IMG/VR virus record: IMGVR_UViG_3300032286_001748
Direction: 5' to 3' (one strand)
Length of the DNA: 20,000 bases
Source of the DNA: an uncultured virus (IMG/VR IMGVR_UViG_3300032286_001748)
Taxonomy: Duplodnaviria; Heunggongvirae; Uroviricota; Caudoviricetes
Positions 1-17,962 of the stretch are shown one piece after another (the stretch's first letter is position 1; the number at the start of each line of letters is the position of its first letter). The translations under genes were made by a program, and so were the position numbers. The notes under the pieces were generated by a model, which saw only the letters and a program-made list of their open reading frames with translations, ran no database searches and was not told where the DNA came from.

Positions 1-122
1 TCGTCGTCCTCGCCCAGGTCGTCGTCTTCCCCGAGGTCGTCGTCTTCCCCGAGATCGTCGTCCTCACCGAGGTCGTCATCCTCGCCAAGATCGTCGTCTT
101 CCCCGAGGTCGTCGTCCTCGCC
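1..122 (-). repeat. 18-bp coding tandem repeat (GEDDDL), 6 full units plus a partial unit
   Basis: Units at 15-32, 33-50, 51-68, 69-86, 87-104 and 105-122 differ only at synonymous positions. Confidence 0.95.
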
Positions 123-200
123 AAAGGTGTTGAGCAGCTCGTCGAGACCCATCGAGGAATCGAGTGCGCCGAGGAGGGTACGGTCCAGAGTGTCAGCCAT
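1..200 (-). CDS. N-terminal part of an acidic repeat protein (runs off the window; absent from the ORF track)
   Basis: ATG at 200 preceded by GGAG (tagGAGcctcccATG). Translates as MADTLDRTLLGALDSSMGLDELLNTF(GEDDDL)6GEDD with no stop before base 1. Confidence 0.85.
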   Translation of the reverse strand, partial: MADTLDRTLLGALDSSMGLDELLNTFGEDDDLGEDDDLGEDDDLGEDDDLGEDDDLGEDDDLGEDD

Positions 201-209
201 GGGAGGCTC

Positions 210-494
210 CTACGAGGGTTTCTTGCCACCAAGGGCTTTGAAGTTGAGATCGACTCCACGCTCGCTAATCCGGTCAAGCGATGCGCTCAACTCGGAGGAG
301 ACGATGTGGGCTTCCTTGACGAGAGAGGAGAGGAGATCACGATCGACCGGATCGAAGGAGGCCACAACCCGAATCTTGAGCGCGTCCCGCCGCGAGGCCG
401 ACTCAAGGAACCAGAAGGCGCCCCCCAAGACAACGGTAGCCCCGAGCGCCGAAGCCCCGACAAGGACCATCCGATCACGAAGCCGCGCGTCCAT
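210..494 (-). CDS. Small membrane protein (about 94 aa)
   Basis: Likely start ATG 494 (MDARLRD), 4 nt after the upstream stop. Hydrophobic segment MVLVGASALGATVVLGGAFWFL. Confidence 0.7.
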   Translation of the reverse strand: MDARLRDRMVLVGASALGATVVLGGAFWFLESASRRDALKIRVVASFDPVDRDLLSSLVKEAHIVSSELSASLDRISERGVDLNFKALGGKKPS

Positions 495-498
495 TCGC

Positions 499-750
499 TC
501 AGGCTCTCCGAGAGAGCATGTATCCGATCCCTGCACCCGTACCCAACCCGAGGAGGGAGACGGCGAGAAGCGGGAGAAGGCCAGCGCCCGGCGGCGGCGG
601 CGGCGGCGGCGGAGGAACCACGATGACCGGAGCGACCGGAGTTGGCTCCTTCCTCGCGACTACGTCCTTGATCGCCTTGGCCGCGACCAGAGGGACGATC
701 CCGAACGCAGGATCTCCCCCCAGCAGCCGGTCGATCTGGCCGTTCGTCAT
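499..750 (-). CDS. Small proline-rich protein with C-terminal membrane anchor (83 aa)
   Basis: ATGA overlap with the upstream gene. Poly-Pro run followed by LLPLLAVSLLGLGTGAGIGYML and a basic tail (SRRA). Confidence 0.75.
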   Translation of the reverse strand: MTNGQIDRLLGGDPAFGIVPLVAAKAIKDVVARKEPTPVAPVIVVPPPPPPPPPGAGLLPLLAVSLLGLGTGAGIGYMLSRRA

Positions 751-1271
751 CGCGTGCGCCCGAAGGCGTAGCCAATCCCGACGCCGACACCGACCGCGAC
801 CAGCCCGACCAACGCGAGCTGGATCGGGGAGGCCCCCGCAGGAGCCGCAGGGGCCGCAGGCGCCTGCACAACGATGGGGGCGGGGGCGGCAGCCGCCTGC
901 TTCTTCGAGGCCAGCTCCATGGCGCGCGCCGCGACCTTCTCGGCCTTCGACGTTCCCGACTCATCCTTCTTGAAGAAGGACGCGATCTGCTTTCCGATGG
1001 GACGCCCGTCCGCGGGCGGCTTCGCCCTCTTGACGGGGGCGGGCGGGACGGGCGACGAGGCAGGAGCCTGGGCGATCACCTCTGCCCCGTAGAACCCCAT
1101 GGACATCATGGGCGCAGAGAGGGACGCCATGGCGAGGCTGCCCCTGCGGGCGTCCTTCCGGCGCGCGTAGGGGCCCGGTGCCGGGTACACCACCTCGAGC
1201 ATCTCCGCAGGCGGATGCCACGTCGGCGTCGGGGGCCAGGCGGCCTGGTAGACGGGCGGGTAGGCATACAT
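747..1271 (-). CDS. Pro/Ala-rich protein with C-terminal membrane anchor (about 174 aa)
   Basis: Likely start ATG 1271 (MYAYPP), 1 nt after the upstream stop. C-terminus IQLALVGLVAVGVGVGIGYAFGRTR resembles the anchor of the neighbouring 83-aa protein. Confidence 0.75.
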   Translation of the reverse strand: MYAYPPVYQAAWPPTPTWHPPAEMLEVVYPAPGPYARRKDARRGSLAMASLSAPMMSMGFYGAEVIAQAPASSPVPPAPVKRAKPPADGRPIGKQIASFFKKDESGTSKAEKVAARAMELASKKQAAAAPAPIVVQAPAAPAAPAGASPIQLALVGLVAVGVGVGIGYAFGRTR

Positions 1272-1272
1272 C

Positions 1273-3285
1273 TCAGACCTTCCATTCGGCGCGCATGACG
1301 GCGACCGTATCCGGACCCACCACGCCCTGCGCCTTGAGCCCGCCCACCTTCTTCTGGAACGCGATGACCGCAGCCTGGGTGGCGGGACCGAAGTTCCCAT
1401 CCTCCTCGATGCCCGCGCCCTCGTTCTGGTTCAAGAGCTGCTGGAGGAAGCGGATCTCCCCGTTGGGGACCTTCCCGCCGATGCTCGTGTCCTTCATCCC
1501 CTTCTTGAGGTAGAGCGCGCCCGTGAGGGGGAACGCGGCGGCCGCGGGGGCTGCCTTCTGGGAGGCAGAGACCGCCTTCCAGGACGTGCTGTCGAACGCC
1601 TTCTCGTAGGCGGCCTTGCCCGCGGCGCGCACCGCGCCGCGCGCGGCGCGCAGCTCCATGCGCTGATCCGAGATCTCCTTGTCGTACTGCGCGATGAGCG
1701 TCGGATCGGAGGTCTTCGCGCGCTTCTGCTCCGCGCGTTGAAGACGCGTCTGCGCGAGGATCTCCCGCTTCTTCGCAACCCCCTGCACCTCGCGCTCCGC
1801 CTTACGCGCGGCGGCCGCCGCCTTGCCAGCCTGCGACATCCGCTTGGAGTCCCGTGCGCCCGTCGAGAAGAGGTTGCGGAAGAACTCGCCCAGCGACTGG
1901 AAGAACCCACCGAACGCATCCTCGGAACGGACGGCGTAGGCCAGCATGGCCTCGCTGTCCGCGCCGAGCGTAGCCGCGCGGTTCTGGAAGTGACGCACGA
2001 AGCGCCGACGCGCCGGGGTCACCCCGTTGTAGCTCTTGAGGTACTCCTCCTCGTTGTAGGCCTTCGGGGCCGTCGCCACGCCCTCGGTGTCCGACGACGC
2101 GCTCTCCGCGTCGGGGGCCGCATCCTCGGACTCCGCGTCCGGGGAGGAGCCGGCACGACGCGCCAGCTCGGCCTTCGCGGCCGCGCGGACATCCTTGCGG
2201 CGCAGCACGTCCTTGGAGATCGCACGGAGGCGAGCCTCGGGGAGGGTCTTGAACTTCTCCTGCATCGCGCGGAGGCGCTTGGTCTTCGGATCGACCGCCT
2301 CCTCGTCGCCCTCTTCCTCGCGGCGCGACAGCTCGGCCCGCGCCGCCTCGCGGACCTCCTTCTTGCGGAGCGCGTCGTTGGCGATGGCCTTGACCTTCTT
2401 CGTCGAGAGGGTCTTGAGCTTCGTGCTCATCACCGCCACGCGCTCTTCGGCGCCGTAGTCGGTGAGCTGGTCGAAGAGGGCGACCTCGCTCTCCTCCACG
2501 TTCACACGCGCGTCTTCGGCGCGCCAGACGGCCCTTGAGCCGGACTGAAGGGCCTTGGCCTTGGCGATGAGCATCTGGAGGGTCGCGCGGATCTGTGCCC
2601 GAACCGGGCCCGGCTTCGTGGTCTCCAGCTTCGCGCGAAGGGCTCGGATCTCCTTACGGGCTGCGGTTTCAGAGGCCGAAGCGACAGCCCCCATGCGCTC
2701 CGCGCAGTCCGCGCCGAACACGGAGTCGAGGTCGCCCCCGAAGGCGTGAGACGCCGCGCCGAGGTACGCCAGCGCATCGCTGAAGTCGGTGTCGTCCGCG
2801 CCCATGGTGTCGCTGGACGTGTAGAGCTGGGAGAGGAGCTTGTTCATCACGTCCTCCCGCTGGGACGCGGAGAGGCTCTCCTCGTACGCCTTGCGGCGGA
2901 GCAGACGCGTCTCCTCGGGAGAGTAGTAGCCGAAGCCGTCCGCGGTGTGCGAGGCCCGCACGGCCCCGATGACGTTGGCCTCGAGCGCGAGGGCCTCGTT
3001 CTCTTCCTCGGCGGCCGCCTCCGCGCCCATCCGAGCGAGGGGGTGGTAGCCGAGGGTCGAAGCCTTCGCGGCCGCGCCGCGGAGGCGGTCCGCACGACGG
3101 CGGCGGATGTCGGCCTGCGCGAGCGCCTCCTGGGCCCCCTGCACGAACGCACGCGCCTCTGGGCTGCCCTGGTCGGCCTTCTTCGCCAGCACGCGGGCTG
3201 CGATGAGATCCCGCGCAGCGCCCACCCGAACGATGTCCGTGGGGGACGAGGGGGAGACGAGGTAGGACAGGAGATCAGACGACAT
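1273..3285 (-). CDS. Large helical, charged protein with C-terminal peptidoglycan-binding domain (PG_binding_1-like), putative virion protein
   Basis: 670-aa ORF. The C-terminus LKKGM..GEIRFLQQLLN..EDGNFGPATQAAVIAFQKK..GVVGPDT matches the three-helix PGBD pattern. Internal repeat KLKTLSTKKVKAIANDALRKKEVREAARAELSRR / KFKTLPEARLRAISKDVLRRKDVRAAAKAELARR. Confidence 0.8.
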   Translation of the reverse strand: MSSDLLSYLVSPSSPTDIVRVGAARDLIAARVLAKKADQGSPEARAFVQGAQEALAQADIRRRRADRLRGAAAKASTLGYHPLARMGAEAAAEEENEALALEANVIGAVRASHTADGFGYYSPEETRLLRRKAYEESLSASQREDVMNKLLSQLYTSSDTMGADDTDFSDALAYLGAASHAFGGDLDSVFGADCAERMGAVASASETAARKEIRALRAKLETTKPGPVRAQIRATLQMLIAKAKALQSGSRAVWRAEDARVNVEESEVALFDQLTDYGAEERVAVMSTKLKTLSTKKVKAIANDALRKKEVREAARAELSRREEEGDEEAVDPKTKRLRAMQEKFKTLPEARLRAISKDVLRRKDVRAAAKAELARRAGSSPDAESEDAAPDAESASSDTEGVATAPKAYNEEEYLKSYNGVTPARRRFVRHFQNRAATLGADSEAMLAYAVRSEDAFGGFFQSLGEFFRNLFSTGARDSKRMSQAGKAAAAARKAEREVQGVAKKREILAQTRLQRAEQKRAKTSDPTLIAQYDKEISDQRMELRAARGAVRAAGKAAYEKAFDSTSWKAVSASQKAAPAAAAFPLTGALYLKKGMKDTSIGGKVPNGEIRFLQQLLNQNEGAGIEEDGNFGPATQAAVIAFQKKVGGLKAQGVVGPDTVAVMRAEWKV

Positions 3286-3310
3286 GCAGCCACCGGGAGA
3301 GAGGGGGTGG

Positions 3311-3356
3311 GGAGAAGAAGAACGGGGGCGTCGGGCGGAGGAGCCTGACGCCCCCG
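3311..3356 (-). terminator. Probable intrinsic terminator after the basic-protein gene
   Basis: 14-bp stem (3323-3336 / 3343-3356, one mismatch) with a 6-nt loop, followed on the minus strand by TTCTTCTTCTCC. Confidence 0.6.
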
Positions 3357-3387
3357 GAAGGGTCCTGCGGAGCAGGGCCTGTCGGGA

Positions 3388-4203
3388 CTACCGGTTGGCC
3401 GCGCCCTTCTGGGACTTCTTGCTCTGGCGCTTCACGTCCTGGAACTTGACCTGGCGGGGAGCGCCCTTCTCGCGCAGCTTCTTCGCCTTGTCGGTGTTCA
3501 GGAACGCGACGACGCGCTGCTGCTCCGCAAGGGAGAGCTGGTTGAACGGGGTCGCGCCCTGACCGGGGACCGCGGCCACGCGCGTCGGGATGCGCTTGGA
3601 CTTCTTGATCATGTAGGGCATCTTCTGGCCCTGGATCTGCACGAAGACCTGCTTGACCGACTTGCGGGTCTTGCGGGCCTTGCTGGTGATGCGAGCATCC
3701 GCGTAGATCTCCGCGAACTGCTCATAGAGGGTGCGGGTGTCGATCTGCGGGAAGCCCTTGGGCGCCTTCAAGAGCTTGGGGGACGTGAGCTTGACCCCGC
3801 CGCGCGTCTGGCGGGCCACCAGCGTCTTCGCCTTGATGGCACGCTGGATCTTGTCGACGCGAGCGCGAAGCGCCTTCGGGATGGTCGTGCTGGCGGCCTT
3901 ACCGCCCTTGCCGCTGACGCGGCTCCGGCTCTTGCGGCTCGTGCGCGTCTTCTTGGACTGGCGCTTGGCGCTGGTGCGCTGAGCCTTGGCCTGGGACTGG
4001 GCCTTGGCCTGGGCCTTGGCCTGCACCTTCGCCTGGGGGGCGACGCTCTTCAGCTCGGCGATGAGTTCGGCCTTGGTCATGGACGCGGCGTTGGCGATCA
4101 TCGCCTGCTTGGCGGCCTGGGGAGCGGGAGCGGACTTGACGAGGGAGATGAACTTCTTGCGAAGGGTCTCGACTTTCTGGTTCTGGAGTGCAACAGCGGG
4201 CAT
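3388..4203 (-). CDS. Highly basic K/R/A/Q-rich protein, putative DNA-condensing core protein
   Basis: 271 aa with very few acidic residues and runs such as KRQSKKTRTSRKSRSR and AKAQAKAQ. GGAG lies upstream of the ATG. Confidence 0.7.
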   Translation of the reverse strand: MPAVALQNQKVETLRKKFISLVKSAPAPQAAKQAMIANAASMTKAELIAELKSVAPQAKVQAKAQAKAQSQAKAQRTSAKRQSKKTRTSRKSRSRVSGKGGKAASTTIPKALRARVDKIQRAIKAKTLVARQTRGGVKLTSPKLLKAPKGFPQIDTRTLYEQFAEIYADARITSKARKTRKSVKQVFVQIQGQKMPYMIKKSKRIPTRVAAVPGQGATPFNQLSLAEQQRVVAFLNTDKAKKLREKGAPRQVKFQDVKRQSKKSQKGAANR

Positions 4204-4263
4204 GGGAGAGTCTCCGAGGAGGAGGAAGCGCCAGAGGCGCGAGTGGTGAAGCGTCCGAGAACG

Positions 4264-4659
4264 CTACGGGACCGGGGCCGTGAGGCACCGGGAGATCAGG
4301 TCGGACTTGGTGAGCCGCAGCAACCGGGTGGTCTCCGCGTCTACCTTGTCCGGGGGGCAGGCCTGCCGAGCCAGGATCTGCTCCACGATCTGCAGCTTCG
4401 TCAACGCCGCGAGCGAACCCGCGTCGTACGAAGACGGCTCTGCGGCCGAAGCCTCAGAGACGGGAGAGACATCCCCCGAAGGGGTGTCCTCGGAGGCCTG
4501 CGGCAGCGCCTCCTCCTCCATGGAAGGGGAACCGAGGGAGTGCTCGGAACGGTTCCCCTCTTCAACTGGAGAGATCTCCAGCGAAGCGAAATGCGCGCGC
4601 AAGCGGGCCGCGGTTTCAGCGGCCTCGCTCAGCGTCAGCGCGAGAAGCTCTGGATTCAT
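4264..4659 (-). CDS. Hypothetical protein (about 131 aa) with acidic linker and small C-terminal helical domain
   Basis: ATGA overlap at 4656-4659 (MNPELL). C-terminus contains LTKLQIVEQIL and LTKSDLISRCL. Confidence 0.65.
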   Translation of the reverse strand: MNPELLALTLSEAAETAARLRAHFASLEISPVEEGNRSEHSLGSPSMEEEALPQASEDTPSGDVSPVSEASAAEPSSYDAGSLAALTKLQIVEQILARQACPPDKVDAETTRLLRLTKSDLISRCLTAPVP

Positions 4660-5075
4660 CGACGGATGGCTCCGATAAGCGGAAGTAGCATGGAGCCAAG
4701 CGCAAGTCCACCCACGGCCACAACCTTCTGACCGGTGTCGGAACGCGCCATGTCGAGCGCCGTCTGGAACGCCGGAGCCGCCTGCCCGAACAGCGTCTCC
4801 ATCACGACGTCCTGCTGGCGCTCCGTGAGCAGAGGCTTCGACGCACGCGAAGGCGGGGGCGTGCGCGGACGCGACGGAGCCGGAGGCGCTGAACGCGCAG
4901 CCGCCGCCTCCTCCTCCTCGATCCACGGGTCGCTGTAGACCGACGCCTGACGCTGGGCGCGATGCATGGAACGCACCGCGCGCTGGGCACGCTGGGAACG
5001 AAGGTCAACCTCCCCCCGCCGGAGGCCGCGCACGATGGCCGCGTCCTCCTGCTCCCGCTCGTCTGCGTCCCTCAT
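4656..5075 (-). CDS. Hypothetical protein with C-terminal hydrophobic anchor (about 139 aa)
   Basis: ATGA overlap at 5072-5075 (MRDADERE). Ends VVAVGGLALGSMLLPLIGAIRR. Confidence 0.7.
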   Translation of the reverse strand: MRDADEREQEDAAIVRGLRRGEVDLRSQRAQRAVRSMHRAQRQASVYSDPWIEEEEAAAARSAPPAPSRPRTPPPSRASKPLLTERQQDVVMETLFGQAAPAFQTALDMARSDTGQKVVAVGGLALGSMLLPLIGAIRR

Positions 5076-7012
5076 GCGCCGTAGACCTCGGCGCCCACCC
5101 GGCGGGGAGGGGGAAGCGGGGAACCCTGCCCGTCCGGGTAGGCGTTCGCCGCGCCGTAGAAGACCGGCCCGTAGACCGCGTCCTCCGCCTCGTTCATCGT
5201 CGCCACCAACGTTGAGGCCGAGCCCTCCACGAGCAGGCCGAGGAGGTCTTCGTCTGACCCGTAGAGCACGGGTCCGTACAGCGCCTCCTCCACGTTGTTC
5301 ATGTAGGCAACGTCCGAATCGTCCTGACCGAGGTAGTCCGAGATCGACGTGTGGGCCGTCATCACGGCGACCGCGTCCGGAACGTCGTACCCGGTCGGGA
5401 CGCGACGAACCTCCTCTTCGTAGATCAGATCGAGCAGATCGCTGGACGCGCCCGTCTTGCGCTGGATGCCGATCACGATGACCGGCTCCGCGCCGTAGGT
5501 GCCCGAGCACGGGGCGAGGCGCGCGTAGTTCACGCTGCCGTTGGGCGCCACCGAACGCAGGGCGTCCGTGATCTGGGTGAGGAGCTTCGTGGCGCGCTGG
5601 GTCTTCTCCAGCACGTCCTTGCCCTCCCGCACGGAGCGAAGCTCCGAGACGGAGGGGAGAAGGACCCGGCGCTGGAGATTGGCCGCCTTCGCCTGCGCCG
5701 TGTCCATCTGCGCGGGCGCAGCCGACGCCTTCGGCTTCTCCTCGTCCTCGTCCACCTCGTCCTCGTCCACCTCGTCCTCGAGCCCGATCTTGGCGAGGTG
5801 AGCCGCGTTCATCTGCGAACGTGCCTTCCGGCGGATCTGGCGGGCAAGCGCCGGGCGAACCGCGCCCATCTGCTCCGCGAGACCGAGGAGACGCTCGGAC
5901 GAGACCACCCCGTCGAGCAGATCCACCAGGGCCGGCGCGGAGAGCCCATCCATCCCCTCGGCACCGAAGGCCGCGAGACGATCGCCCACGCCGCGCCCGA
6001 AGAGCGCGCGGAAGTCGGAGCTGGTGAACTCCACGTCCTCGCCACCGTCGATCCCGTAGTAGTCGTGCTCCATCGCGCTGAACAGGTAGCCGATGGTCTC
6101 CGCGCGGAGATCGGAGGCCAGATCTTCCTGGCCGACCGCGTAGTCCGAGGCCCCATAGTAGCAGGTGCCCCCGTAGCTCGGGGTAGACGTGGACAGCTCC
6201 TCCTCCAACGCAGCCTGGTCACGGAAGTAGGCCTCGCTGACCTTCTTGGAGACAGGCGTGTACGTCGAAGAGGCCGGCGGGACGACCGGGGCGACCGGAG
6301 CCGTCACGGTCGGCGGGGTGACCGTGGGCGCGACGAGCGAAGGCGCGTAGGCCGGCGTCACCGAAGTCGAGGCGGCCGAAGGAAGGGTAGACGGGTGGCG
6401 CGTCAAGATCTGAACGCGCGGAGGTGCAGGAACCCTGCGCGCGCGGGGCGGCCCGCGGAACCCGAGCAACTCGGCCTCCAGGCGACCCGGAGGGACGAGC
6501 CCCTGACGGTTCACGCCCAGCGTGCCCATGCGCGCCCAGATCCGCTTGAGGCGAAGGAGCGCGCGGCCCGCCACGTTCTTCCGGTTCTGCGTCTCCGAGA
6601 GGCCCGCCGTGAAGAGGGCGGCCGCCGCGCGGCCCGCCGTGAACCGGTTCGAGAGCCAGTACCGGAAGCGCTCGGTGACGCGCGCGTAGCGCGCCCGGAG
6701 CCGGGCCGTCTGGCCCGCCGTTGCGCCCAGCGCGTCCGCGCCCAGCGTGTCCGCGTACAGGCCCATCACGTCCGCGCCCAGCTCCGGAGCCGAATCGGCC
6801 GCGTACTCGACCGCGAGCGGGAAGGCGGTGAAGTCGTCCGGGAGCATCGCCGCCACCTCGGCACCCGAAAAGACCACACCATGCGTGGTTCGGGCGCCGG
6901 GCCGGAGAATGAGGGTGCTTCCGTAGTTCACGAGGTTGGAGACCGGGAAGGCTCCAAACGTACCCGAGAGGGCCGCGGAGATGCGCTCAATGTCGGTGTC
7001 AGTCAGTGCCAT
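5072..7012 (-). CDS. Large modular protein (646 aa) with many [LMFYV]GA motifs, putative virion precursor protein
   Basis: GGAG upstream of ATG 7012. Alternating acidic, basic and Pro/Thr-rich blocks; EDEVDEDEVDED repeat; ends VYGA. Confidence 0.75.
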   Translation of the reverse strand: MALTDTDIERISAALSGTFGAFPVSNLVNYGSTLILRPGARTTHGVVFSGAEVAAMLPDDFTAFPLAVEYAADSAPELGADVMGLYADTLGADALGATAGQTARLRARYARVTERFRYWLSNRFTAGRAAAALFTAGLSETQNRKNVAGRALLRLKRIWARMGTLGVNRQGLVPPGRLEAELLGFRGPPRARRVPAPPRVQILTRHPSTLPSAASTSVTPAYAPSLVAPTVTPPTVTAPVAPVVPPASSTYTPVSKKVSEAYFRDQAALEEELSTSTPSYGGTCYYGASDYAVGQEDLASDLRAETIGYLFSAMEHDYYGIDGGEDVEFTSSDFRALFGRGVGDRLAAFGAEGMDGLSAPALVDLLDGVVSSERLLGLAEQMGAVRPALARQIRRKARSQMNAAHLAKIGLEDEVDEDEVDEDEEKPKASAAPAQMDTAQAKAANLQRRVLLPSVSELRSVREGKDVLEKTQRATKLLTQITDALRSVAPNGSVNYARLAPCSGTYGAEPVIVIGIQRKTGASSDLLDLIYEEEVRRVPTGYDVPDAVAVMTAHTSISDYLGQDDSDVAYMNNVEEALYGPVLYGSDEDLLGLLVEGSASTLVATMNEAEDAVYGPVFYGAANAYPDGQGSPLPPPRRVGAEVYGA

Positions 7013-7048
7013 GCAGGACTCCAGACGCGGACATAGCCCGCGCGACGT

Positions 7049-7666
7049 TCAGATACCACGGAGGTGGAAGATGAAGGTGTTCGCCACGTTGCAGGACAGG
7101 GCAGACCAGAGCGCGTCCACACGCTCCCCGGCGGTCGCCGCATAGGCGAAGGTCGAGCCGAACTGGGGGATCTGGAAGGTCAAGACGCACGCGTTCTGGA
7201 CCGTGATCGCCTCGCATCCCTCGGGAAGCTCGATCACCGATGCGGGGGCCGTGTAGGAGAGGAACGAGAGGAGCGGCGAGCGCCCCAGGATCTCGTAGAC
7301 CCAGGTGAAGTAGAGCGTGCAGTCCGCGGGGATCGGCGTCACCGCACGCACGTTGACGTGGGGATAGGAGCCGACGTGCAGCTCCGCGGAGAGCCCCTCT
7401 CCGACCGCAAAGACGCGGCGCGCGATGCCGCCGTAGGCGGTGCCGGCCTCGGCGTCGATCGTGACCGTGAGGCCGGGGGTGGCGCTCTCGTTCTTGAAGC
7501 TGATCGAAAGCCCCATCGGGCCGATACCATCGACGTTGACGGGCGGGCGCCCCTTCCAGAGGGCCGAGGTGTCAGTCTTAGGGCCTCGGAAGAGGCCGCC
7601 ATCCCGCGCGCCACCCGCCAGCTCTTGCAGATTGGTCAGCGGGTATCGAATCGGGAACTGGCTCAT
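7049..7666 (-). CDS. Beta-strand-rich protein (205 aa), possible minor capsid or vertex protein
   Basis: ATGA-coupled to the transglutaminase-like gene. Alternating hydrophobic strands (LSISFKN, LTVTIDA, TLYFTWVY, TFIFHL). Function is inferred from context only. Confidence 0.55.
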   Translation of the reverse strand: MSQFPIRYPLTNLQELAGGARDGGLFRGPKTDTSALWKGRPPVNVDGIGPMGLSISFKNESATPGLTVTIDAEAGTAYGGIARRVFAVGEGLSAELHVGSYPHVNVRAVTPIPADCTLYFTWVYEILGRSPLLSFLSYTAPASVIELPEGCEAITVQNACVLTFQIPQFGSTFAYAATAGERVDALWSALSCNVANTFIFHLRGI

Positions 7667-8070
7667 CCGTTTCCTCCCATGCCAGCGGCACGGCTCGGGT
7701 CAAGAAGGCCCCACCGCTTCGTCTTGACGACGACGTGGTAGAGGTGGGGCCCGCTCTGGTAGACGTAGGTTCGGGCGTCTTCGCCCGCGAACATCATCTC
7801 GGCCGCCACGGCCGAGGACAGATCTTCGCAGTCCCCCTGCGCGGTGCCTCCGTTCGCGAGCTGGGCGACCAGCTCGTCCCACGTCTGCCAGTGTTCCCGT
7901 GGGTCGGCCCGCCTGTAGCGGACACGGCCCGACTGGATCCCGCGCAGGATGGGCATCGCCTTCGGATTGGCGTTGACGTGACGCATCTGGCCGAGGTTGG
8001 CAGAGACGATCCCGTCCAAGAGGTTGGCGGCATCCCGTGTGGCGACCCGGATGTAGGGGGTGACAGGCAC
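7663..8070 (-). CDS. Transglutaminase-like cysteine enzyme (putative protease)
   Basis: GDCEDLSSAVAAEM (catalytic Cys motif), YHVVVK (His) and LLDPS (Asp) appear in the order typical of the transglutaminase-like superfamily. 135 aa, GTG start. Confidence 0.8.
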   Translation of the reverse strand: MPVTPYIRVATRDAANLLDGIVSANLGQMRHVNANPKAMPILRGIQSGRVRYRRADPREHWQTWDELVAQLANGGTAQGDCEDLSSAVAAEMMFAGEDARTYVYQSGPHLYHVVVKTKRWGLLDPSRAAGMGGNG

Positions 8071-8073
8071 AGG

Positions 8074-9042
8074 CTACCTCGTAACGTAGGAGACGCTGTC
8101 GACGCTCGGCGTACGCCCCTGGGCGCCGCGCCGCGCGTACGGACCCGGCTGGTGACGGCCGAACTCGGTGTCGTCGAGAACATCGACGATGAGCTGGATC
8201 GTAAACGTCATCGACGTGTAAGGGACGCCCACCACGGCCGCCGAGAGATAGGCCCGGTTGGGGGAAGCGAGGATCGGGTTGTCGCGAAGCCCCGCGTACT
8301 CGGGGAGGAGCGTCGAGTAGACGGTCGCATCGACGTACTCGCCCTGCGGGAAGAGGTTCGCGGAGCCGCCGACGTTGAGGTTCCGAACGAGCAGCGTCGG
8401 GCGCTGGTTCGACGTGTAGATCTGTGGGATCAACGAACCGGGGAGGAAGCCGCCGCCGTTCGGGATCGGGATCCCTGTGGGGAGATCTTGGGTGTAGTCC
8501 GGAAGCGGGCAGGCCTTCGTGGAGACTTGAAAGCCCACGATCCGAACCGTGGCCCACTCCAGGATGGGGCTCCGGAAGTAAAGTCCGCTCACCTTCCGGT
8601 TCGCCGTCACCCCGTCCGTCGCGAACGGCGGGATGTTCACGATGACGGTGGGGTTGACCTCGTCGGGCTGCAAGGCCCCCGCGCCGGTCGTGACCGTCGT
8701 CCACCCCGTCTGCGGGTTCTTCGGATCCACACCCGAGGGGAAGGTCGGCTGGTTGTCCAGCTCATACAGGTACAGGGGAATCGCGACCAGACGCCCGATG
8801 CCCGGCGGCGCGTTGACCTCAAAGGCCAGGCCGCCGACCCCGTTCACGCCCGCCGCAGAGGCGAGCGTGTCCTTCATCAAGGCTACCGGGTCGGGGCGGA
8901 CCGGGGCCTTGCCGACCTGCGCGTAGAGCTGGTCGAGCGCCTGGCGGAGATCGCGCGCACGATCTCCGCTGCTCAAGCGGAGCAGCAGCTCGAGGCGCCG
9001 GATGCGGCCTTGGACGATGCGGCGATCGGATGCGTCGGACAT
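8074..9042 (-). CDS. Capsid-like protein paralog 3 (322 aa, most divergent, with insertions)
   Basis: Shares PPGIGRL, P..WAT.RIVGF, GG.ANLF, GLRD.PIL.SPN and DD..G.H.PGPYAR blocks with the two upstream genes. Confidence 0.65.
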   Translation of the reverse strand: MSDASDRRIVQGRIRRLELLLRLSSGDRARDLRQALDQLYAQVGKAPVRPDPVALMKDTLASAAGVNGVGGLAFEVNAPPGIGRLVAIPLYLYELDNQPTFPSGVDPKNPQTGWTTVTTGAGALQPDEVNPTVIVNIPPFATDGVTANRKVSGLYFRSPILEWATVRIVGFQVSTKACPLPDYTQDLPTGIPIPNGGGFLPGSLIPQIYTSNQRPTLLVRNLNVGGSANLFPQGEYVDATVYSTLLPEYAGLRDNPILASPNRAYLSAAVVGVPYTSMTFTIQLIVDVLDDTEFGRHQPGPYARRGAQGRTPSVDSVSYVTR

Positions 9043-9079
9043 GGCAGCCCCTTAGCGCGAAGAAGACGCGGATGCACGA

Positions 9080-9111
9080 AGGCCCGCCCGCGCCGAGACG
9101 CGAGCGGGCCT
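9080..9111 (-). terminator. Stem-loop between capsid-like paralogs 2 and 3, possible terminator or attenuator
   Basis: 13-bp stem AGGCCCGCCCGCG / CGCGAGCGGGCCT (one mismatch) with a 6-nt loop. The U-tail is weak. Confidence 0.45.
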
Positions 9112-9161
9112 CACGGGCGTCCGACCGGAGTTTCCCCCGGTCGGAACAGACCGAACCGGGA

Positions 9162-9857
9162 CTACCGGTTGACGAACGAACCGCCCTGGCGAACGAGGGC
9201 GCCCGCGCGCGCGTAGGCACCGGGGATGTGGGCCCCGTAGTTGTCGTCCACCAGGATCTCGCAGACCAGACTGGCGGAGAAGTTGATGCGGGACACGGTG
9301 ACGCCCACCGGGCCCACGACCTGGGCGTTGAGCTGCGCGACGTTCGGGCTCTTGAGGATGGGATAGTCGCGGAGGCCCGCGAAGCTGTCCTGACCCGAGA
9401 GGTAGATGTCGGCCGGAGCGAAGTCTTCGTGGACGAAGAGGTTCGCGCCGCCGCCGATCTGGAGCTGCGAGAAGCAGAGCTGCGCGACCGGGCCGTTCGG
9501 GAGAACGGGGTAGCGCACGGCGGCCTCGAAGCCCACGATGCGGAGGGTGGCCCAGGAGATCTGGGGGGTCTGGAGCTGGACGGTGCCGGTCACCGCGGTG
9601 GCGGAGCCCGCCTCGTTGGGCGACTCGGCGCAGATGGCCGGGACGGTGGTCGAGGTGCCAAAGCCGCCCGCGGCAACCGGGGTCGTGCTCAGGGGCTTGA
9701 AGCCCGCGACCGACGTGGTGACGTAGAACGGGATGCGGATGAGGCGGCCGATGCCCGGGGGCGCCTGCGCGGTGAACTGGAGACCGCCCACACCGTCAAC
9801 CATGGCGCGGTTGATGCGGTTGTTGGCGTCGAGGAGGGGGTTTGCAGAGCGAGCCAT
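9162..9857 (-). CDS. Capsid-like protein paralog 2 (about 231 aa)
   Basis: Likely start ATG 9857 (GGAG 6 nt upstream; in-frame alternative at 9896). Beta-rich, and nearly identical to paralog 1 in the C-terminal half. Confidence 0.7.
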   Translation of the reverse strand: MARSANPLLDANNRINRAMVDGVGGLQFTAQAPPGIGRLIRIPFYVTTSVAGFKPLSTTPVAAGGFGTSTTVPAICAESPNEAGSATAVTGTVQLQTPQISWATLRIVGFEAAVRYPVLPNGPVAQLCFSQLQIGGGANLFVHEDFAPADIYLSGQDSFAGLRDYPILKSPNVAQLNAQVVGPVGVTVSRINFSASLVCEILVDDNYGAHIPGAYARAGALVRQGGSFVNR

Positions 9858-9935
9858 GGAGAACTCCGTAGAGAGGAAGGGAGAAGGGGAGGACATCGCG
9901 CCGCGCGGGATGAGCCGCGCGGCGCGACAGCGGGA

Positions 9936-10808
9936 CTACCGGTTGACGAACGAGCCGCCCTGGCGGACGAGGCTGCCGCCGCGCGCGTAGGGGCCGGGGA
10001 TGTGCGCGCCGTAGTTGTCGTCCACGAGCACCTCGCAGAGCAGCGAGCAGCTCACGGTCATCGACTCGCCCACCACGTCATCGAGCATCTGGACGGTCAC
10101 GACCGCCGTGTTCGGGGACTTGAGGATGGGGTAGTCGCGAAGACCGCAGAACTCGGGCTGATCCGCGCTGTAGATGTCGGCGTCCGCGAAGTCTTCGTGG
10201 GTGAAGAGGTTCGCGCCGCCGCCGATCTTCAGATCCTGCACGAGCAGGATGGGACCGGGGTTCTGGATCGCGCAGTTGAGCTTCTGCGCCACCTCGAAGC
10301 CGACGATCCGCAGGGTAGCCCAGGAGATCTGGGGGGTCTGCAGGATGTGGGCCGCGTTGCCCGAGGTGCCCACGCCGGGGATCTCGATGAACACCGGGTT
10401 GACGGTGCTGGCCGTGTTGCCCGTCGCCGCGGTCGACGTGGAGGTGACCACGTTGAGGGTCGCGTTGACCGGGTAGAACGGGAGACGAACGAGGCGACCG
10501 ATGCCCGGGGGCGACATGGCCTGGAAGGACAGACCACCGACGCCCTCGATGCCGGAGGCAGCGAGCGCGGTCGCCGCAGCCTGCTTCTGCGCGGTGTAGC
10601 CGCTCTTGGCGAGGATGCGGTCGATCTGCATGAGCTTCTGCTTGATCGCCTTCTGGCGGGCCGGGCCGACCAGCGGGAGCTGGGCAACCAGCTTGCTGCG
10701 GAGGCGGAGGAGGCGGGCGAGCTTGCGCTCGCTCATCGCGCCCAGCTCATCCGTGCCGTCGTCGTCAGCGCCAAAGTCATCATCGAGGCCGAAATCGTCG
10801 TAAGCCAT
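9936..10808 (-). CDS. Capsid-like protein paralog 1 (about 290 aa) with acidic N-terminal extension
   Basis: GGAG upstream of ATG 10808. Begins MAYDDFGLDDDFGADDDGTDELGA, followed by a basic helical segment and then the shared beta-rich core. Confidence 0.7.
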   Translation of the reverse strand: MAYDDFGLDDDFGADDDGTDELGAMSERKLARLLRLRSKLVAQLPLVGPARQKAIKQKLMQIDRILAKSGYTAQKQAAATALAASGIEGVGGLSFQAMSPPGIGRLVRLPFYPVNATLNVVTSTSTAATGNTASTVNPVFIEIPGVGTSGNAAHILQTPQISWATLRIVGFEVAQKLNCAIQNPGPILLVQDLKIGGGANLFTHEDFADADIYSADQPEFCGLRDYPILKSPNTAVVTVQMLDDVVGESMTVSCSLLCEVLVDDNYGAHIPGPYARGGSLVRQGGSFVNR

Positions 10809-10859: not shown

Positions 10860-11309
10860 CTACCAGCCGTAGGAGCTGTTCATCGAGCCGCGGGCGTAGT
10901 TCTGGGCGCCGCCCTTGGCCTTGGCGCCACCGCGAGGCGCGCTGGCAGGAGCGGACTCGGTGAGCTGGGGAGCCTCGGCGCTGGAGGAAGCCGCCGCCGC
11001 CTTCTTGGACTCAGCCGCCTTGCGGCAGGTCTCGGTGGCGACGAAGGAGCCGAGGAGGCCGGTCGCCACGTCGTGACCGACGCGACGGGCCATCGGGGGG
11101 CCGAACTGGCCGACGAGGGCGGCGGTGAGACCACCGAGGAAGCGGGCGTCCGTGAGCGCCATCACTTCCTTCACGCCACTATTCTTGTTGAGGACCTTGA
11201 AGCCGGTGCGAAGCGTGCCGTCCCGGCAAGCGAAGTGGGTGGCCGCGGCGTTGAGGCCGAGCGAGCCGAGCAGATCGAGCGGAGTGAAGTCAGAAGCGTC
11301 ACCGAGCAT
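10860..11309 (-). CDS. First gene of the structural operon, small possibly membrane-associated protein (149 aa)
   Basis: GGAG upstream of the ATG. Gly-rich hydrophobic helices FLGGLTAALVGQFG and VATGLLGSFVA, then a low-complexity tail. Confidence 0.7.
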   Translation of the reverse strand: MLGDASDFTPLDLLGSLGLNAAATHFACRDGTLRTGFKVLNKNSGVKEVMALTDARFLGGLTAALVGQFGPPMARRVGHDVATGLLGSFVATETCRKAAESKKAAAASSSAEAPQLTESAPASAPRGGAKAKGGAQNYARGSMNSSYGW

Positions 11310-11411: not shown

Positions 11412-11437
11412 GTTCATATTCACGTTCACGCGTGAAC
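11412..11437. promoter_or_regulatory. Operator-like repeat and palindrome
   Basis: Three tandem RTTCAY hexamers (GTTCAT ATTCAC GTTCAC). The last forms the perfect 14-bp palindrome GTTCACGCGTGAAC (11424-11437). Confidence 0.5.
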
Positions 11438-12592
11438 ATGGCGTTGAAGCGGCAAGACCAAAAGAACAGGCAGTGCATGAACAGACCCCCTCCTCGCACC
11501 CGCTCCCAGGCCCCGATCACGGGCGGGTCGCCAGATCGCGGAGAGGAGGAACCCGAGGAGGGGACGGCGACCCCGCGCGCGAACCCGCGGCTGACCGGAG
11601 ACGCGCGCTACTACTGCTACGCCTGCGGGAGCCCCTGGCCGAAGGAGGCCGTGGTGTGCCCGGCCTGCAAAGGCAGCGACCGCGCCCGCGGCGCCGCACG
11701 ACCGATCCGGCCCGCGCAGAACGACACCGCCCTCTTCGACGGCCCGTGGAAGCTGCTCCCGTGGCCGAAGCAGGGGACGGTCGCCATGTACGGGGGGCCG
11801 GGAGCCGGGAAATCGAGTCTCGCGGGCCTCCTGCGCCCCACCCGCTGGCTGACGCGCGAGCAGGAGCCGAAACCGGTGGGCGACATGTTCCGGCGCATCC
11901 TCCCCGACTTCATGCCGAGCGTCGAGACCGTCGAGACACCTGAAGACGTAAAGCGCGTGCTGTCCGAGACGCAGCGCGGACCCGTCGTCATGGACTCGCT
12001 GACCGCGTTCGGCCTCCGTGAAGCGCTGGTCGTCGCCCACATGCTCGTCCACTGGGCCCAGCGCAACAACGACCGGGCGCTGGCGATCATCCAGCTCAAC
12101 AAGGACGGCCAAGCGGCCGGCTACATGGAGATCCCCCACCTCTTCGACGCCATCGCGAACGTGAGCCCCGACCCGTGGGGGGTGCGCGCCTTCCGCATCA
12201 CGAAGTCCCGGTGGTCGGCGCTGGAGTCGATCTACTGGACCTTCGACAAGGAAGGGAAGCTCACGATCCCTGAGTTCCCCGCCGCCTACAGCGTCGAGGG
12301 CGGGCCCGGAGAGTACTGGCTCCACCCCTACCCGCTCAAGGGGGCGAAATGGACGGGCGTGCTCGGCGCGCTCCACGCCGCAGAGCTGCTGCGCCCCGGA
12401 TGCGCCAGCTCCGCCATCGTCGCCGGGTACATGCCGACCGGGTTCCTCGAGCCGATGGACATTGAGGAGCGCCGCCGTTTCGCGGAGCGAAACGGGCTGT
12501 CGTGGGTGAGCGCGGACGACGCCGCCGATCAACTGAAAGACACCGCCCCGAACGCCGATACGAACAACCCTTTCCCTGACGACGAGGAATAG
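11432..12592 (+). CDS. RadA/Sms-like RecA-fold ATPase with C4 zinc finger and no recognisable Lon-like C-terminal domain
   Basis: YYCYACG..VCPACKG zinc finger; Walker A GGPGAGKSS; Walker B VVMDSLT. QLNKDGQAAGYMEIPHLFDA resembles RadA HVTK.G.IAGP..LEH.VD, and ITKSRW lies at the KNRFG position. The start codon is uncertain. Confidence 0.75.
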   Translation: MNMALKRQDQKNRQCMNRPPPRTRSQAPITGGSPDRGEEEPEEGTATPRANPRLTGDARYYCYACGSPWPKEAVVCPACKGSDRARGAARPIRPAQNDTALFDGPWKLLPWPKQGTVAMYGGPGAGKSSLAGLLRPTRWLTREQEPKPVGDMFRRILPDFMPSVETVETPEDVKRVLSETQRGPVVMDSLTAFGLREALVVAHMLVHWAQRNNDRALAIIQLNKDGQAAGYMEIPHLFDAIANVSPDPWGVRAFRITKSRWSALESIYWTFDKEGKLTIPEFPAAYSVEGGPGEYWLHPYPLKGAKWTGVLGALHAAELLRPGCASSAIVAGYMPTGFLEPMDIEERRRFAERNGLSWVSADDAADQLKDTAPNADTNNPFPDDEE

Positions 12593-15464: not shown

Positions 15465-16442
15465 ATGCCTCTCCCTACGCTCAACTGGAAGTACGTCGGC
15501 GCGTTGAACCACACGGTATCCTCGATCAACTCGGCGTTGGACGCCGTTTACACGCTCGGGACCGCCGTCACCTACGCGGACGGCTCGGCGCGTGTCCCCG
15601 GCACGGGGTCGGCCTGGACGTGGCTTCGCGAGGTCAGCGGCGTGACCGTCGCAGCTTACGGCGCACCCCCGACGAACGCGCTCAACTTCCGCTACATCCT
15701 CGGGGGGACGGTCGGCGCGAGCGCATACACGTTCCTGACGCCCGACACGGGGACCCTTGCCAACGTGATCGTGTACGGGATGAACCGTAACAGCGGCGCT
15801 TACACATCCTGGGTCAACGCCCAGCCGTTCACGTCGGGGTTCAGCGGGTACTGGCGCGCAACGCAGAGCTACGTCAACGCCTACGACAGCGTGACGATGT
15901 GGGAAAGCCAAGAAGGCTGCGCGATCCAGTTCAACCGCACGGCGACGGGCGTTCTCTCAGCCGTCAACTTCGGCGCCCTGTTCGATCCGCTCACGGCGAG
16001 CACGCTCGTCGCGGAGTCGGACGGTCGCGTCTACTCGATGGCGGGGACGGGATCCAGCGCCACCGTGCCCGGGAACTGGCTGCTCACCTCCGGGGCATCG
16101 AGCGTCGGGCTCTTCGGGTCGGGCAGCTCAACGGCGAGCAACGGGCACGCGGGTACGCTGGCGCCGGGGAGCACCGTCATGGTCGGAGGAGCCGGCGCGC
16201 AGACCCAGCGTTTCGGAGACTTCACCGTCGCGACGACGTTCACGGCGCCCAACGGCGACATCGTGCGCGTGCCCTTCAGCCAGATCGCATCAACCGGGAA
16301 CTACCTCGGACAAAGCCGCAACTTCTTCATCATCAAAGATGCGATCTCGCGGCAAACGTACACGTCGGGCCCGAGCACGGTAGGGTACGTCTTCGGGTCG
16401 AGCACGACGGGGACCAGCGACTCCGTTCTCCTGGGAGCGTAG
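15465..16442 (+). CDS. Beta-rich putative spike/receptor-binding protein, paralog A (325 aa)
   Basis: S/T/G/aromatic-rich and collinear over its full length with the next gene. Confidence 0.65.
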   Translation: MPLPTLNWKYVGALNHTVSSINSALDAVYTLGTAVTYADGSARVPGTGSAWTWLREVSGVTVAAYGAPPTNALNFRYILGGTVGASAYTFLTPDTGTLANVIVYGMNRNSGAYTSWVNAQPFTSGFSGYWRATQSYVNAYDSVTMWESQEGCAIQFNRTATGVLSAVNFGALFDPLTASTLVAESDGRVYSMAGTGSSATVPGNWLLTSGASSVGLFGSGSSTASNGHAGTLAPGSTVMVGGAGAQTQRFGDFTVATTFTAPNGDIVRVPFSQIASTGNYLGQSRNFFIIKDAISRQTYTSGPSTVGYVFGSSTTGTSDSVLLGA

Positions 16443-17677: not shown

Positions 17678-17962
17678 ATGGCACTCAACAGCTACCGCCA
17701 GTTCACGACGACGCGCACTCCTGTGAACGCAGGCGCATGGAACGCCGTCCTCCTTCCGGCCGGCGCGCTGGACGGGACCATCACCCTCGAGGACGCGACC
17801 GCGACCTTCCGCGTCACGGCCGACAACACGATCGGCCTGGCCCAGGGCGTGCCCGTGTCGGCGGCCGGGAGCTACATCTTCCCGGGGGTCGCCGCAACGG
17901 CCATCACCGTCTACGTCAACCCGAGCGCGGGGACCGTTGCGGTGGTTCAGTCGCAGCTCTGA
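17678..17962 (+). CDS. Small beta-rich protein (94 aa), possibly structural
   Basis: Clean ORF with strand-like alternation (TITLED, TFRVTAD, ITVYVNP). Confidence 0.65.
   Translation: MALNSYRQFTTTRTPVNAGAWNAVLLPAGALDGTITLEDATATFRVTADNTIGLAQGVPVSAAGSYIFPGVAATAITVYVNPSAGTVAVVQSQL

Follow-up and report, generated by a model that had tools for sequence, protein, structure and literature searches.

Two features of one viral gene block raise a common question: whether a short hydrophobic-Gly-Ala motif that recurs in otherwise unrelated structural proteins marks the sites at which a small Cys-His-Asp enzyme, encoded among them, processes virion precursors. The block lies in a 20,000-nucleotide stretch of an uncultured virus (IMG/VR record IMGVR_UViG_3300032286_001748; hereafter the window, with a GC content of 66-72%), for which a preliminary description had proposed that the motif [LMFYIV]-G-A and the enzyme form a virion maturation system. 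The analysis presented here identifies a more precise consensus, D-x-[FYLM]-G-(A)-D, which together with a basic helix constitutes a module of about 50 residues found in a capsid-like protein (g294, or paralog 1) and in two internal protein families (g646 and g670), and it places a conserved enzyme with a transglutaminase/papain-like fold (g135) within the same block. A T4-like arrangement, in which this module serves assembly and targeting and its aromatic-Gly junction is cut by g135, is put forward tentatively. The window is best explained as the morphogenesis block of an undescribed bacterial virus belonging to an unannotated, jelly-roll-like lineage.

One minus-strand gene block spans positions 11309 down to 1 and comprises g149, the three capsid-like genes g294, g244 and g322, g135, g205, g646, g220, g271, g670, two small tail-anchored membrane proteins and an edge gene, while g386 (RadA/KaiC-like, with a zinc ribbon) and g395 are transcribed in the opposite direction. 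The features on which the argument depends are the following.

9936-10808, minus strand: g294, capsid-like paralog 1 with a putative jelly-roll; likely start Met at 10808, and DNYGAHI in the body at 9999-10019
9162-9896, minus strand: g244, capsid-like paralog 2 (putative jelly-roll, 244 aa), leaderless, with an invariant DDNYGAH near the C-terminus
8074-9042, minus strand: g322, capsid-like paralog 3 (putative jelly-roll, 322 aa), whose leader begins at the basic helix and which has no acidic tail
7663-8070, minus strand: g135, 135-aa transglutaminase/papain-like Cys-His-Asp enzyme, with GDCEDL at 7819-7836, His112 at 7735-7737 and Asp124-Pro125 at 7696-7701
7049-7666, minus strand: g205, conserved 205-aa protein of no recognised fold, motif-free, its start overlapping the g135 stop by 4 nt
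5072-7012, minus strand: g646, 646-aa motif-rich structural protein with 11 [LMFYIV]GA sites
3388-4203, minus strand: g271, 271-aa K/R-rich protein, motif-free, with a family-conserved C-terminal GAAN[RW]W tail
1273-3285, minus strand: g670, 670-aa motif-rich structural protein with 9 [LMFYIV]GA sites
2791-2811, 2704-2724 and 1954-1974, minus strand: the position-conserved g670 sites DTMGADD, SVFGADC and ATLGADS, respectively
1294-1461, minus strand: C-terminal PG_binding_1 domain of g670 (E 5e-11)

Within the window, enrichment was assessed against 5000 composition-preserving shuffles per protein. The counts given in the preliminary description, 9 sites in g670 and 11 in g646, are both correct and far exceed the roughly two expected (P<=0.0002): the shuffle mean is 1.91 for g670 (P=0.0002) and 2.35 for g646, for which none of the 5000 shuffles reaches 11. 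Every example quoted there is present in the sequence, mostly in the form [LMFY]-G-A-[DE], as are the copies in the paralog 1 leader (DFGADDD and ELGA; 3 sites in this protein vs 1.0 expected, P=0.08), the FYGAE of the 174-aa anchor protein and the LGEDDD variant at the window start, which is encoded by an 18-nt tandem repeat of 6.6 copies at 1-119. In the remaining 24 open reading frames (ORFs), P is less than 0.05 just twice, for g325 (5 vs 1.33, P=0.008) and for an alternative ORF at 210-536 (P=0.03). The reported near-absence of the motif from the RadA-like, 395-aa and K/R-rich proteins holds as a count (1, 0 and 0 sites vs 0.85, 0.99 and 0.38 expected) but is not significant alone, because just 0.4-1.0 sites would be expected in each. 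The suggested preference for borders between acidic and basic blocks is weak: 2 of the 18 scorable window sites lie at an acid-to-basic border (0.11 vs 0.07 for all positions), the corresponding fraction over both families is 0.16 vs 0.07, and acid on both sides is the dominant context (0.38 vs 0.19). A DNA-level cause, that is, a common nucleotide word such as GGCGCGGA, was considered and dropped, as the protein motif persists in relatives of 35-66% GC.

Relatives of the window were collected from 3 contigs of metagenome-assembled genomes (MAGs) and 67 metagenome loci. Family tests were confined to full or long ORFs, namely 13 homologues of g646 and 10 of g670, some of them cut by contig ends; from the 25 loci with g646 matches, the near-identical L004 and L007, the duplicates L003, L026, L027 and L062, and short fragments had been removed. 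In this set, [FY]-G is enriched in all 13 g646 homologues (p<=0.023) and all 10 g670 homologues (p<=0.031), whereas [LMFYIV]-G-A reaches p<=0.05 in just 8 and 5 of them, respectively. A scan of all dipeptides, made without assuming any motif beforehand, gave a similar picture: YG (75 vs 23.9 expected) and FG (68 vs 21.7) rank next after DD in 12 g646-family proteins, FG ranks first in 8 g670-family proteins (53 vs 15.1), and GA is mildly enriched in the g646 set (149 vs 103.8). Around the 265 and 136 [FYLM]-G sites of the g646 and g670 families, Asp is overrepresented at position -2 (3.6-fold and 4.0-fold) and at +3 (3.3-fold and 4.4-fold), and Ala at +2 (2.1-fold and 1.8-fold). The core is therefore D-x-[FYLM]-G-(A)-D, of which Ala, about 2-fold enriched, is the least conserved letter. 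A calcium-binding element of the RTX (repeats-in-toxin) or DxDxDG-like kind seems a poor match, the spacing of D-x-aromatic-G-x-D being unlike that of the RTX nonapeptide.

Individual sites are conserved to different degrees. In g646, site 286 is kept in 14 of 16 aligned homologues (a stricter column rule gives lower numbers), site 95 in 10 of 13 and site 619 in 5 of 7; in g670, the corresponding values are 9 of 9 for site 190, 8 of 9 for site 161 and 5 of 7 for site 440. The remaining 14 window sites are kept in half or fewer of the aligned homologues. Conservation in homologues, which the preliminary description had made a touchstone of its proposal, is accordingly seen for the core and for some site positions, down to about 25-30% identity, and is weaker for the Ala and for the [LMFYIV]GA form.

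The distribution of the motif among protein families is selective. When the window and nine diverged loci were pooled, the observed/expected ratio of acid-flanked aromatic-Gly sites was 3.55 for g294, 3.86 for g646 and 4.35 for g670, as against 1.0 for g386, 0.94 for g395, 0.45 for g205, 0.41 for g322 and 0 for g271, whose family (9 members) has no site where 2.2 are expected. The ratio is also high in four unlabelled proteins encoded after g646, three of them before g271/g670 and the fourth being the 828-aa protein at the g670 position of L029. The motif carriers are capsid paralog 1, g646, g670, the variable proteins between the latter two and the window-start gene, and the motif lies in stretches that are acidic and probably disordered. 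Tandem arrays occur as well, with LGEDDD repeated about 7 times in the window and DDLGL about 12 times in L009. A short consensus common to several unrelated structural proteins, which exceeds expectation 3.5-4.4-fold in three families and elsewhere is either missing or no commoner than by chance, represents a candidate processing site. In a separate observation, proteins of the g149 family (about 50 loci) carry an aromatic-Gly tip, the nearly invariant N-[YF]-A-Y-G-W-stop, at their very C-terminus, and in the low-GC clade described below the C-terminal region of this family contains acidic LGAD/LGLD arrays too.

The motif forms part of a larger unit, in which an acidic aromatic-Gly cluster is followed by a basic amphipathic 'SERR' helix, together about 50 residues long. 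In the paralog 1 leader, MAYDDFGLDDDFGADDDGTDELGA is followed by MSERKLARLL (junction at 10722-10751), and in the family alignment an acidic stretch containing repeated aromatic-Gly closes with an invariant D-E-[FLY]-G, directly ahead of the basic helix (DEFG-x-SERRIARLLKRRAKL). The same module occurs after the N-terminal domain in the g646 family (ALGA-TAGQTARLRARYARV) and mid-protein in several g670 homologues (DLFGMSERRKARVLRRL). In the window copy of g646, the conserved N-terminal domain leads into an acidic aromatic-Gly cluster ending in DALGATA (6716-6736) and then into the basic helix, beyond which lie the conserved sites CYYGASD (6143-6163) and EHDYYG and the C-terminal EVYGA-stop (5075-5089). 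Alignment of the three sub-alignments with hhalign gave probabilities of 88%, 94% and 92% (E 3e-6, 2e-7 and 6e-7) with the aromatic-Gly in register, compared with 3.1% for the best of 40 column-shuffled controls.

Among capsid-like proteins at large, 21 of 50 cluster representatives with an aligned leader helix have an aromatic-Gly within the 14 preceding residues, or, by hand count, 17 of the 26 with at least 14 upstream residues; most of the others start at the leader helix, like paralog 3. The N-extensions of 75 long (>=320 aa) representatives contain 208 acid-flanked aromatic-Gly sites vs 69.2 expected, with 23 of the 75 at p<=0.01. Some distant capsid-like proteins carry N-extensions of 300-570 residues, in which strongly basic and acidic aromatic-Gly blocks alternate ahead of the leader helix, giving the appearance of internal-protein modules fused to the capsid protein. 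P0285, P0302, P0319 and P0373 are such distant representatives, P0285 having a long insert inside the jelly-roll region instead.

The second element of the proposed system, g135, had been described as a transglutaminase-like Cys-His-Asp enzyme, an assignment that holds for fold class and triad. All 24 aligned sequences share D80-C81-E82-D83, H112 and D124-P125, and in the structural model (predicted local distance difference test, pLDDT, 89; predicted template modelling score, pTM, 0.86) Cys81 opens helix 81-94, His112 is part of strand 110-117 and Asp124 comes after strand 121-123, which corresponds to the arrangement of the transglutaminase-like superfamily, with Cys at a helix N-terminus followed by His and Asp on adjacent strands. 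Neighbours among solved structures, almost without exception transglutaminase-like, include the putative cysteine proteases 3kd4 (Z 7.3) and 3isr, PeiP (6.8), PeiW (6.6), LapG (5.7) and CPR-C4 (5.5), and further TglA, factor XIII, TG2/3, TgpA and then arylamine N-acetyltransferases. The best 17 VIA-align rows (Z 5.4-7.3) are mostly transglutaminase-like proteases, isopeptidases and transglutaminases (TGases), with chains of an axonemal complex that bear no such label. The best Foldseek matches (3isr, TgpA, TGase, LapG and PeiP) have probabilities of 0.9-0.99 with E values of only 4e-3 and weaker. With every Z value below 8, the similarity is moderate; it supports the fold class, not the reaction.

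The signal from sequence profiles is mixed. PF01841 (Transglut_core) is matched weakly by 20 of the 24 g135 family members (best E 5.2e-5), and the longer relative P0241, with 24.3 bits, exceeds the cut-off of 23. PF06035 (BTLCP/Peptidase_C93) is matched by a single member of the 24, at E 0.081. The order Cys-His-Asp differs from that of clan CE (adenain/Ulp1), and the top 50 entries of each PDB search name no protease of this clan; a profile search of g135 against PDB sequences returned no match (best E 0.89).

Enzyme and motif were expected to co-occur in homologous loci, and largely they do. The g135 family comprises 177 homologues with at least 50% identity, confined to these contigs, and is more conserved than the capsid genes (57-78% vs 52-64% identity). 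Informative loci, which extend 450 nt or more beyond the last capsid paralog, number 35 without duplicates, and g135 is at the same place in 26 of them. The enzyme thus sits inside a conserved capsid block, as prohead-type proteases do: the order g149-g294-g244-g322-g135-g205-g646 was found in all 10 long loci mapped other than L050. The nine loci without it are the borderline L025 and L038, the distant L068 and six members of a low-GC clade (L049, L050, L051, L054, L056 and L061), which has two tandem g149-g294-g244 sets and is devoid of g322-g135-g205-g646. In L050 (35.5% GC; the clade is marine-looking), an N6 DNA methylase gene and four leucine-rich-repeat genes follow the g149-g294-g244 sets.

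Six longer relatives of g135 were examined. In P0245 (39% identity) and P0246 (32%), the enzyme is continued by a C-terminal tail of about 220 residues with acidic aromatic-Gly elements, in which the motif is enriched (7 vs 2.5 expected, p=0.009, and 5 vs 1.6, p=0.017, respectively). Such fusions of enzyme and tail lend new support to a link between enzyme and motif. The initial basic helix in the N-extension of P0241 weakly resembles the capsid leader (hhalign probability 51%) and is not leaned on here. A complex prediction for g135 and residues 1-55 of the paralog 1 leader (score 0.01, mark 0.32, without controls) speaks neither for nor against binding. P0244 (459 aa) is of a different kind, with about 320 extra residues exactly at the catalytic Cys (TGD-C FPEGTVLL ... 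VSN-C EDFSS); these resemble an intein within the active-site motif that carries an insert of homing-endonuclease size, and P0244 has no Pfam match at E<=0.01.

Taken together, these observations are tentatively interpreted as a T4-like arrangement, namely a shared assembly and targeting module whose aromatic-Gly junction is the cleavage site of g135. The module would recruit capsid paralog 1, g646 and g670 into the forming particle, where g135 would recognise the junction and cut it after the Gly, so that P2 would be the hydrophobic residue, P1 the Gly and P1' a small residue; such a cut would detach the acidic parts from the basic helices and domains. The cut is placed there because papain-like proteases usually recognise a hydrophobic P2 residue and many of the viral ones cleave behind a Gly. 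Two precedents speak for a cleaved module, the targeting propeptides of T4 and SPN3US and the existence of site-specific transglutaminase-like proteases such as LapG. Capsid targeting sequence (CTS) propeptides of T4 are removed by the gp21 prohead protease, the C-terminal propeptide of the SPN3US protease is self-cleaved and was proposed to target it into the prohead, and SPN3US head proteins have a common AXE site (PMC7411985, PMC3012670). LapG is a transglutaminase-like protease that cuts at a di-alanine motif (PMC10990149).

A fuller scenario, in which a widespread, as yet unclassified bacterial jelly-roll lineage matures in the manner of adenovirus or T4 heads, its minimal transglutaminase-fold protease, without kinship to the virion proteases known so far, cutting D-x-aromatic-Gly sites that double as a targeting module and thereby freeing basic helices and a histone-like core, seems unlikely. 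As for the original claim that the motif is a cleavage or cross-linking site of the enzyme, enrichment, a conserved core and co-occurrence speak for it, none of the three outcomes named beforehand as refuting it has come about, the Ala and the border rule have proved weaker, and cleavage itself is inferred; the idea that precursors are converted into many small core peptides has found no support.

Several points weigh against a cleaved module. Retention of at least 70% in diverged homologues is seen for only 3 of the 11 g646 sites and 3 of the 9 g670 sites, and the symmetric Asp flanks and tandem arrays suit a multivalent binding or ion-binding element at least as well. The fold matches of g135 are moderate (Z<8) and include non-proteolytic TGases, arylamine N-acetyltransferases and the cell-wall isopeptidases PeiW and PeiP, and the g135 of the window itself is below every Pfam threshold, without a PF01841 match even at E<=10. 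Moreover, the low-GC clade keeps YGAD, LGAD and LGLD without an enzyme gene at the syntenic place, on contigs that are incomplete. The protease nature of g135, the motif as its site and the position of the cut are all putative.

The alternative that survives best is a docking or 'sticker' motif that is never cut, in which acidic aromatic-Gly elements and basic helices would tie the internal proteins together, and to the inner face of the capsid or to the K/R-rich core, in a multivalent assembly driven by charge, the enzyme having another task. It is somewhat unlikely in its own right, and nearly as likely as a cleavage site. Symmetric acidic flanks, tandem arrays, the predominance of acid on both sides (0.38 vs 0.19) and the presence of the module in three protein families are all consistent with it; the YGW-stop of the g149 family resembles a terminal docking tip, the motif persists in the clade without a syntenic enzyme, and the acidic tails of P0245 and P0246 would then simply be targeting tails. 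However, docking leaves unexplained why a strongly conserved Cys-His-Asp enzyme lies within the capsid block in 26 of 35 loci, and likewise how capsid-like N-extensions of 200-500 residues, if unprocessed, would leave room for DNA. Its binding partner is so far hypothetical.

It is improbable that g135 is a virion-borne or lytic cell-wall peptidase acting together with the peptidoglycan-binding end of g670, with the motif unrelated to it. Among the fold matches of g135, PeiP and PeiW rank near the top (Z 6.8 and 6.6), psiM2 PeiP being in the viral library, and g670 has a PG_binding_1 domain (E 5e-11), but this domain is limited to the close clade of the window and was found in none of six proteins scanned (L015, L017, L021, L023, L028 and L029), four of which run off the contig end, while that of L029 is the 828-aa protein at the g670 position that is unlabelled as a homologue. 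Relatives have separate endolysins (PG_binding_1 plus CHAP in L023 and a PG_binding_1 lysin in L015) and a holin (L017), and g135, located between capsid genes, has neither a wall-binding domain nor a signal sequence.

Still less probable is a true transglutaminase that cross-links capsid or core proteins by Gln-Lys isopeptide bonds, with the motif marking or flanking the cross-linked regions. Factor XIII, TG2, TG3 and bacterial TGases are indeed fold neighbours (Z 5.5-6.3), yet both Gln and Lys are absent from the motif, the K/R-rich g271 is motif-free, and the catalytic core alone does not separate transferase from hydrolase chemistry. The remaining view, that the motif is a functionless by-product of low-complexity acidic sequence (slippage of DDLG-type repeats, GC-rich Gly-Ala codons), is very improbable and, judging from sequence comparison, largely refuted. 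In its favour, some copies are encoded by tandem repeats of 18 nt and 15 nt, conservation of the Ala behind the Gly is weak, and several relatives of lower GC show no enrichment of [LMFYIV]GA (L017, 3 vs 1.2). Against it, composition-preserving shuffles fail to reproduce the motif, enrichment of aromatic-Gly extends to relatives of 57-68% GC, the motif also occurs at 35.5% GC, single dispersed sites are position-conserved at about 30% identity, and profile alignments bring the aromatic-Gly of unrelated proteins into register.

A maturation protease with a common consensus site is a known kind of system, and the putative cleavage system of the window can be compared with several of its representatives. 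It resembles T4 gp21 and SPN3US gp245, as these are described in the sources cited above, in having one enzyme in the head block, a short site in many unrelated head proteins, and targeting propeptides that are removed after assembly; the protease's own targeting propeptide would correspond to the tails of P0245 and P0246. In contrast, the T4 and SPN3US enzymes are serine proteases of HK97-fold tailed phages that cut after (L/I/A)-x-E, whereas here a Cys-His-Asp enzyme is paired with D-x-aromatic-G-x-D, the capsid-like proteins are jelly-roll-like, neither the 20 kb nor the relatives' flanks yielded a gene for a portal, a terminase or an HK97-type capsid, and cleavage is putative.

Adenain, the Ulp1-like enzymes of Polintons and virophages, poxvirus I7 and African swine fever virus (ASFV) pS273R are cysteine proteases of jelly-roll morphogenesis modules, the place that g135 would occupy here; they mature capsid and basic core precursors at short sites that contain Gly, with the consensus (M/I/L)XGG-X or XGX-G. 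Unlike g135, with its Cys-His-Asp order and transglutaminase-like fold, these enzymes belong to clan CE, have the order His-Glu/Asp-Cys and occur in eukaryotic viruses. The role of the adenovirus protease (AVP) is described in PMC4246237. LapG-type bacterial transglutaminase-like cysteine proteases (BTLCPs) are similar in fold class and triad, and they are sequence-specific endoproteases that act at a small-residue motif, as g135 would be (LapG Z 5.7 to g135), but LapG is a periplasmic, calcium-dependent regulator of adhesins, in a context and with a motif unlike those of g135. The pseudomurein endoisopeptidases PeiW and PeiP of methanogen viruses are likewise minimal virus-encoded Cys-His-Asp enzymes of transglutaminase fold (Z 6.6-6.8 to g135); they are lysins with wall-binding repeats, whereas g135 has no such domain and lies among capsid genes.

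Helvetiavirae (Sphaerolipoviridae/Simuloviridae/Matshushitaviridae) offer the closest parallel to the capsid genes, with adjacent paralogous jelly-roll-like capsid genes, a match to HHIV-2 and small tail-anchored membrane proteins. However, the match is weak (pLDDT 63, Z<8), and there are three paralogs with helical leaders here instead of two single-jelly-roll capsid proteins, the neighbouring ATPase is RadA/KaiC-like and not FtsK/HerA-like, and the relatives reside on contigs of 50-190 kb.

To our knowledge, no prokaryotic jelly-roll virus with a maturation protease is known, and none was found in a literature search at the level of titles and abstracts. We also know of no transglutaminase-fold enzyme acting as a maturation protease with this motif in a jelly-roll-like bacterial virus, nor did that search find a transglutaminase-fold maturation protease in such a virus. 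If the proposed cleavage is true, g135 would represent a third independent fold among the enzymes that mature virions, after those found in tailed phages (serine prohead proteases) and in eukaryotic jelly-roll viruses (Ulp1/adenain-type enzymes), and the first maturation protease of a prokaryotic jelly-roll virus; the logic of one short site in many structural proteins would have evolved again in an undescribed virus group, as an independent invention of a targeting propeptide plus consensus site. Even if the module serves docking only, a capsid leader shares it with two internal proteins that are otherwise unrelated, which is a clue to particle assembly. The motif and the leader junction (DEFG-x-SERR) provide a simple sequence signature by which the internal proteins of such viruses can be found.

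The lineage itself is widespread. Capsid paralog 1 has 479 homologues in a large protein collection, all metagenomic or MAG-derived, and 208 clusters at 50% identity in the representative library, and the lineage is common in lake, marine and sediment metagenomes. A protein search of 50,697 phage records with capsid paralog 1 alone returned no match, and scans of IMG/VR with capsid or enzyme queries found no relative, so virus-calling pipelines probably miss this lineage. In long loci the gene order is g395<-g386<- ->g149-g294-g244-g322-g135-g205-g646-(0-3 variable genes)-g271-g670, and the flanks of relatives encode endolysins (PG_binding_1 + CHAP), a holin, a tail-fibre-like repeat protein, a helix-turn-helix (HTH) regulator and endonuclease-VII-like proteins; this gene content indicates a virus of peptidoglycan-walled bacteria, of a kind absent from the libraries.

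Pfam and PHROGs searches of 24 window proteins yielded only PG_binding_1, a Dam methylase, an endonuclease-VII/Stc1-like zinc protein and two weak matches, and no capsid, portal, terminase or protease family. The same searches on 87 and 65 proteins of the relatives' flanks found no terminase, portal, HK97-type capsid or protease family, and Pfam found nothing relevant in 14 distant capsid-like representatives. The model of paralog 1 has a pLDDT of 63, and its best fold match is HHIV-2 6h82_b (Z 7.0, root-mean-square deviation 4.5, 130 of 135 residues aligned), a value to be read against the many non-capsid beta-sandwiches that reach Z 6-7 with this model; Foldseek against the PDB gave no match at E<=0.001. 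The jelly-roll assignment of the capsid-like proteins, as modelled, is thus weak.

The neighbouring ATPase is no better guide to a known family. Among PDB sequences the g386 protein matches only RadA (E 1.3e-5), KaiC-type ATPases are matched by 13 of 18 members (best E 5.7e-7), no ATPase of the FtsK/HerA type (A32-like) was found next to the capsid genes, and the FtsK/HerA family is unlisted in the g386 searches. Since the jelly-roll assignment is weak and g386 differs in type from the ATPases by which known jelly-roll virus modules are defined, the virus is not filed here under a known family. The zinc ribbon of g386 is an N-terminal CxxC...CxxC, and the gene is strictly syntenic with the capsid block and divergent from it; g386 may be an unusual packaging or replication ATPase. 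A profile search of g205 against PDB sequences returned no match (best E 0.89).

The remaining annotated features of the block and its surroundings are listed below.

10860-11309, minus strand: g149, 149-aa protein, first gene of the block, with a nearly invariant YGW-stop at the family C-terminus
4264-4926, minus strand: g220, 220-aa acidic protein, motif-free, found in the closest relatives only
747-1271, minus strand: 174-aa tail-anchored membrane protein with one FYGAE site (1077-1097) and the C-terminal hydrophobic stretch LALVGLVAVGVGVGIGYAF
499-750, minus strand: small tail-anchored protein with the tail-anchor segment GLGTGAGIGYMLSRRA and a run of nine prolines
1-200, minus strand: 5' part of the edge gene, which runs off the window start; its product begins MADTLDRTLLGA and contains about 7 tandem LGEDDD units, an acidic Leu-Gly form of the motif
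11432-12592, plus strand: g386, RadA/KaiC-like ATPase with an N-terminal zinc ribbon, divergent from and syntenic with the block, with 1 motif site vs 0.85 expected

The 174-aa protein has a homologue of 172 aa in L006. The proteins encoded at 499-750 and 747-1271 end in similar tail-anchor segments (GLGTGAGIGYMLSRRA and GVGVGIGYAFGRTR) and may be internal-membrane components or lysis proteins. The (AKAQ)n repeats of g271 give it a composition that is histone-like or adenovirus-core-like and unusual in a phage structural block, and on this compositional ground it is a candidate DNA-condensing core protein.

Outside the block, two paralogs of about 323 aa (15465-16442 and 16446-17414, both plus strand) end in LLGA-stop and have FGALFDP and VGA sites in common; one of them is the only protein outside the block enriched in [LMFYIV]GA (5 vs 1.33, P=0.008), and the pair may represent spike or fibre proteins. 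Further downstream, a multi-zinc-ribbon protein (17916-19112, minus strand; Stc1, endonuclease VII or Lar-like PHROGs) and a Dam-type DNA methylase (18695-19396, minus strand) are encoded by ORFs that overlap by about 400 nt, so that one of the two starts is probably mis-set.

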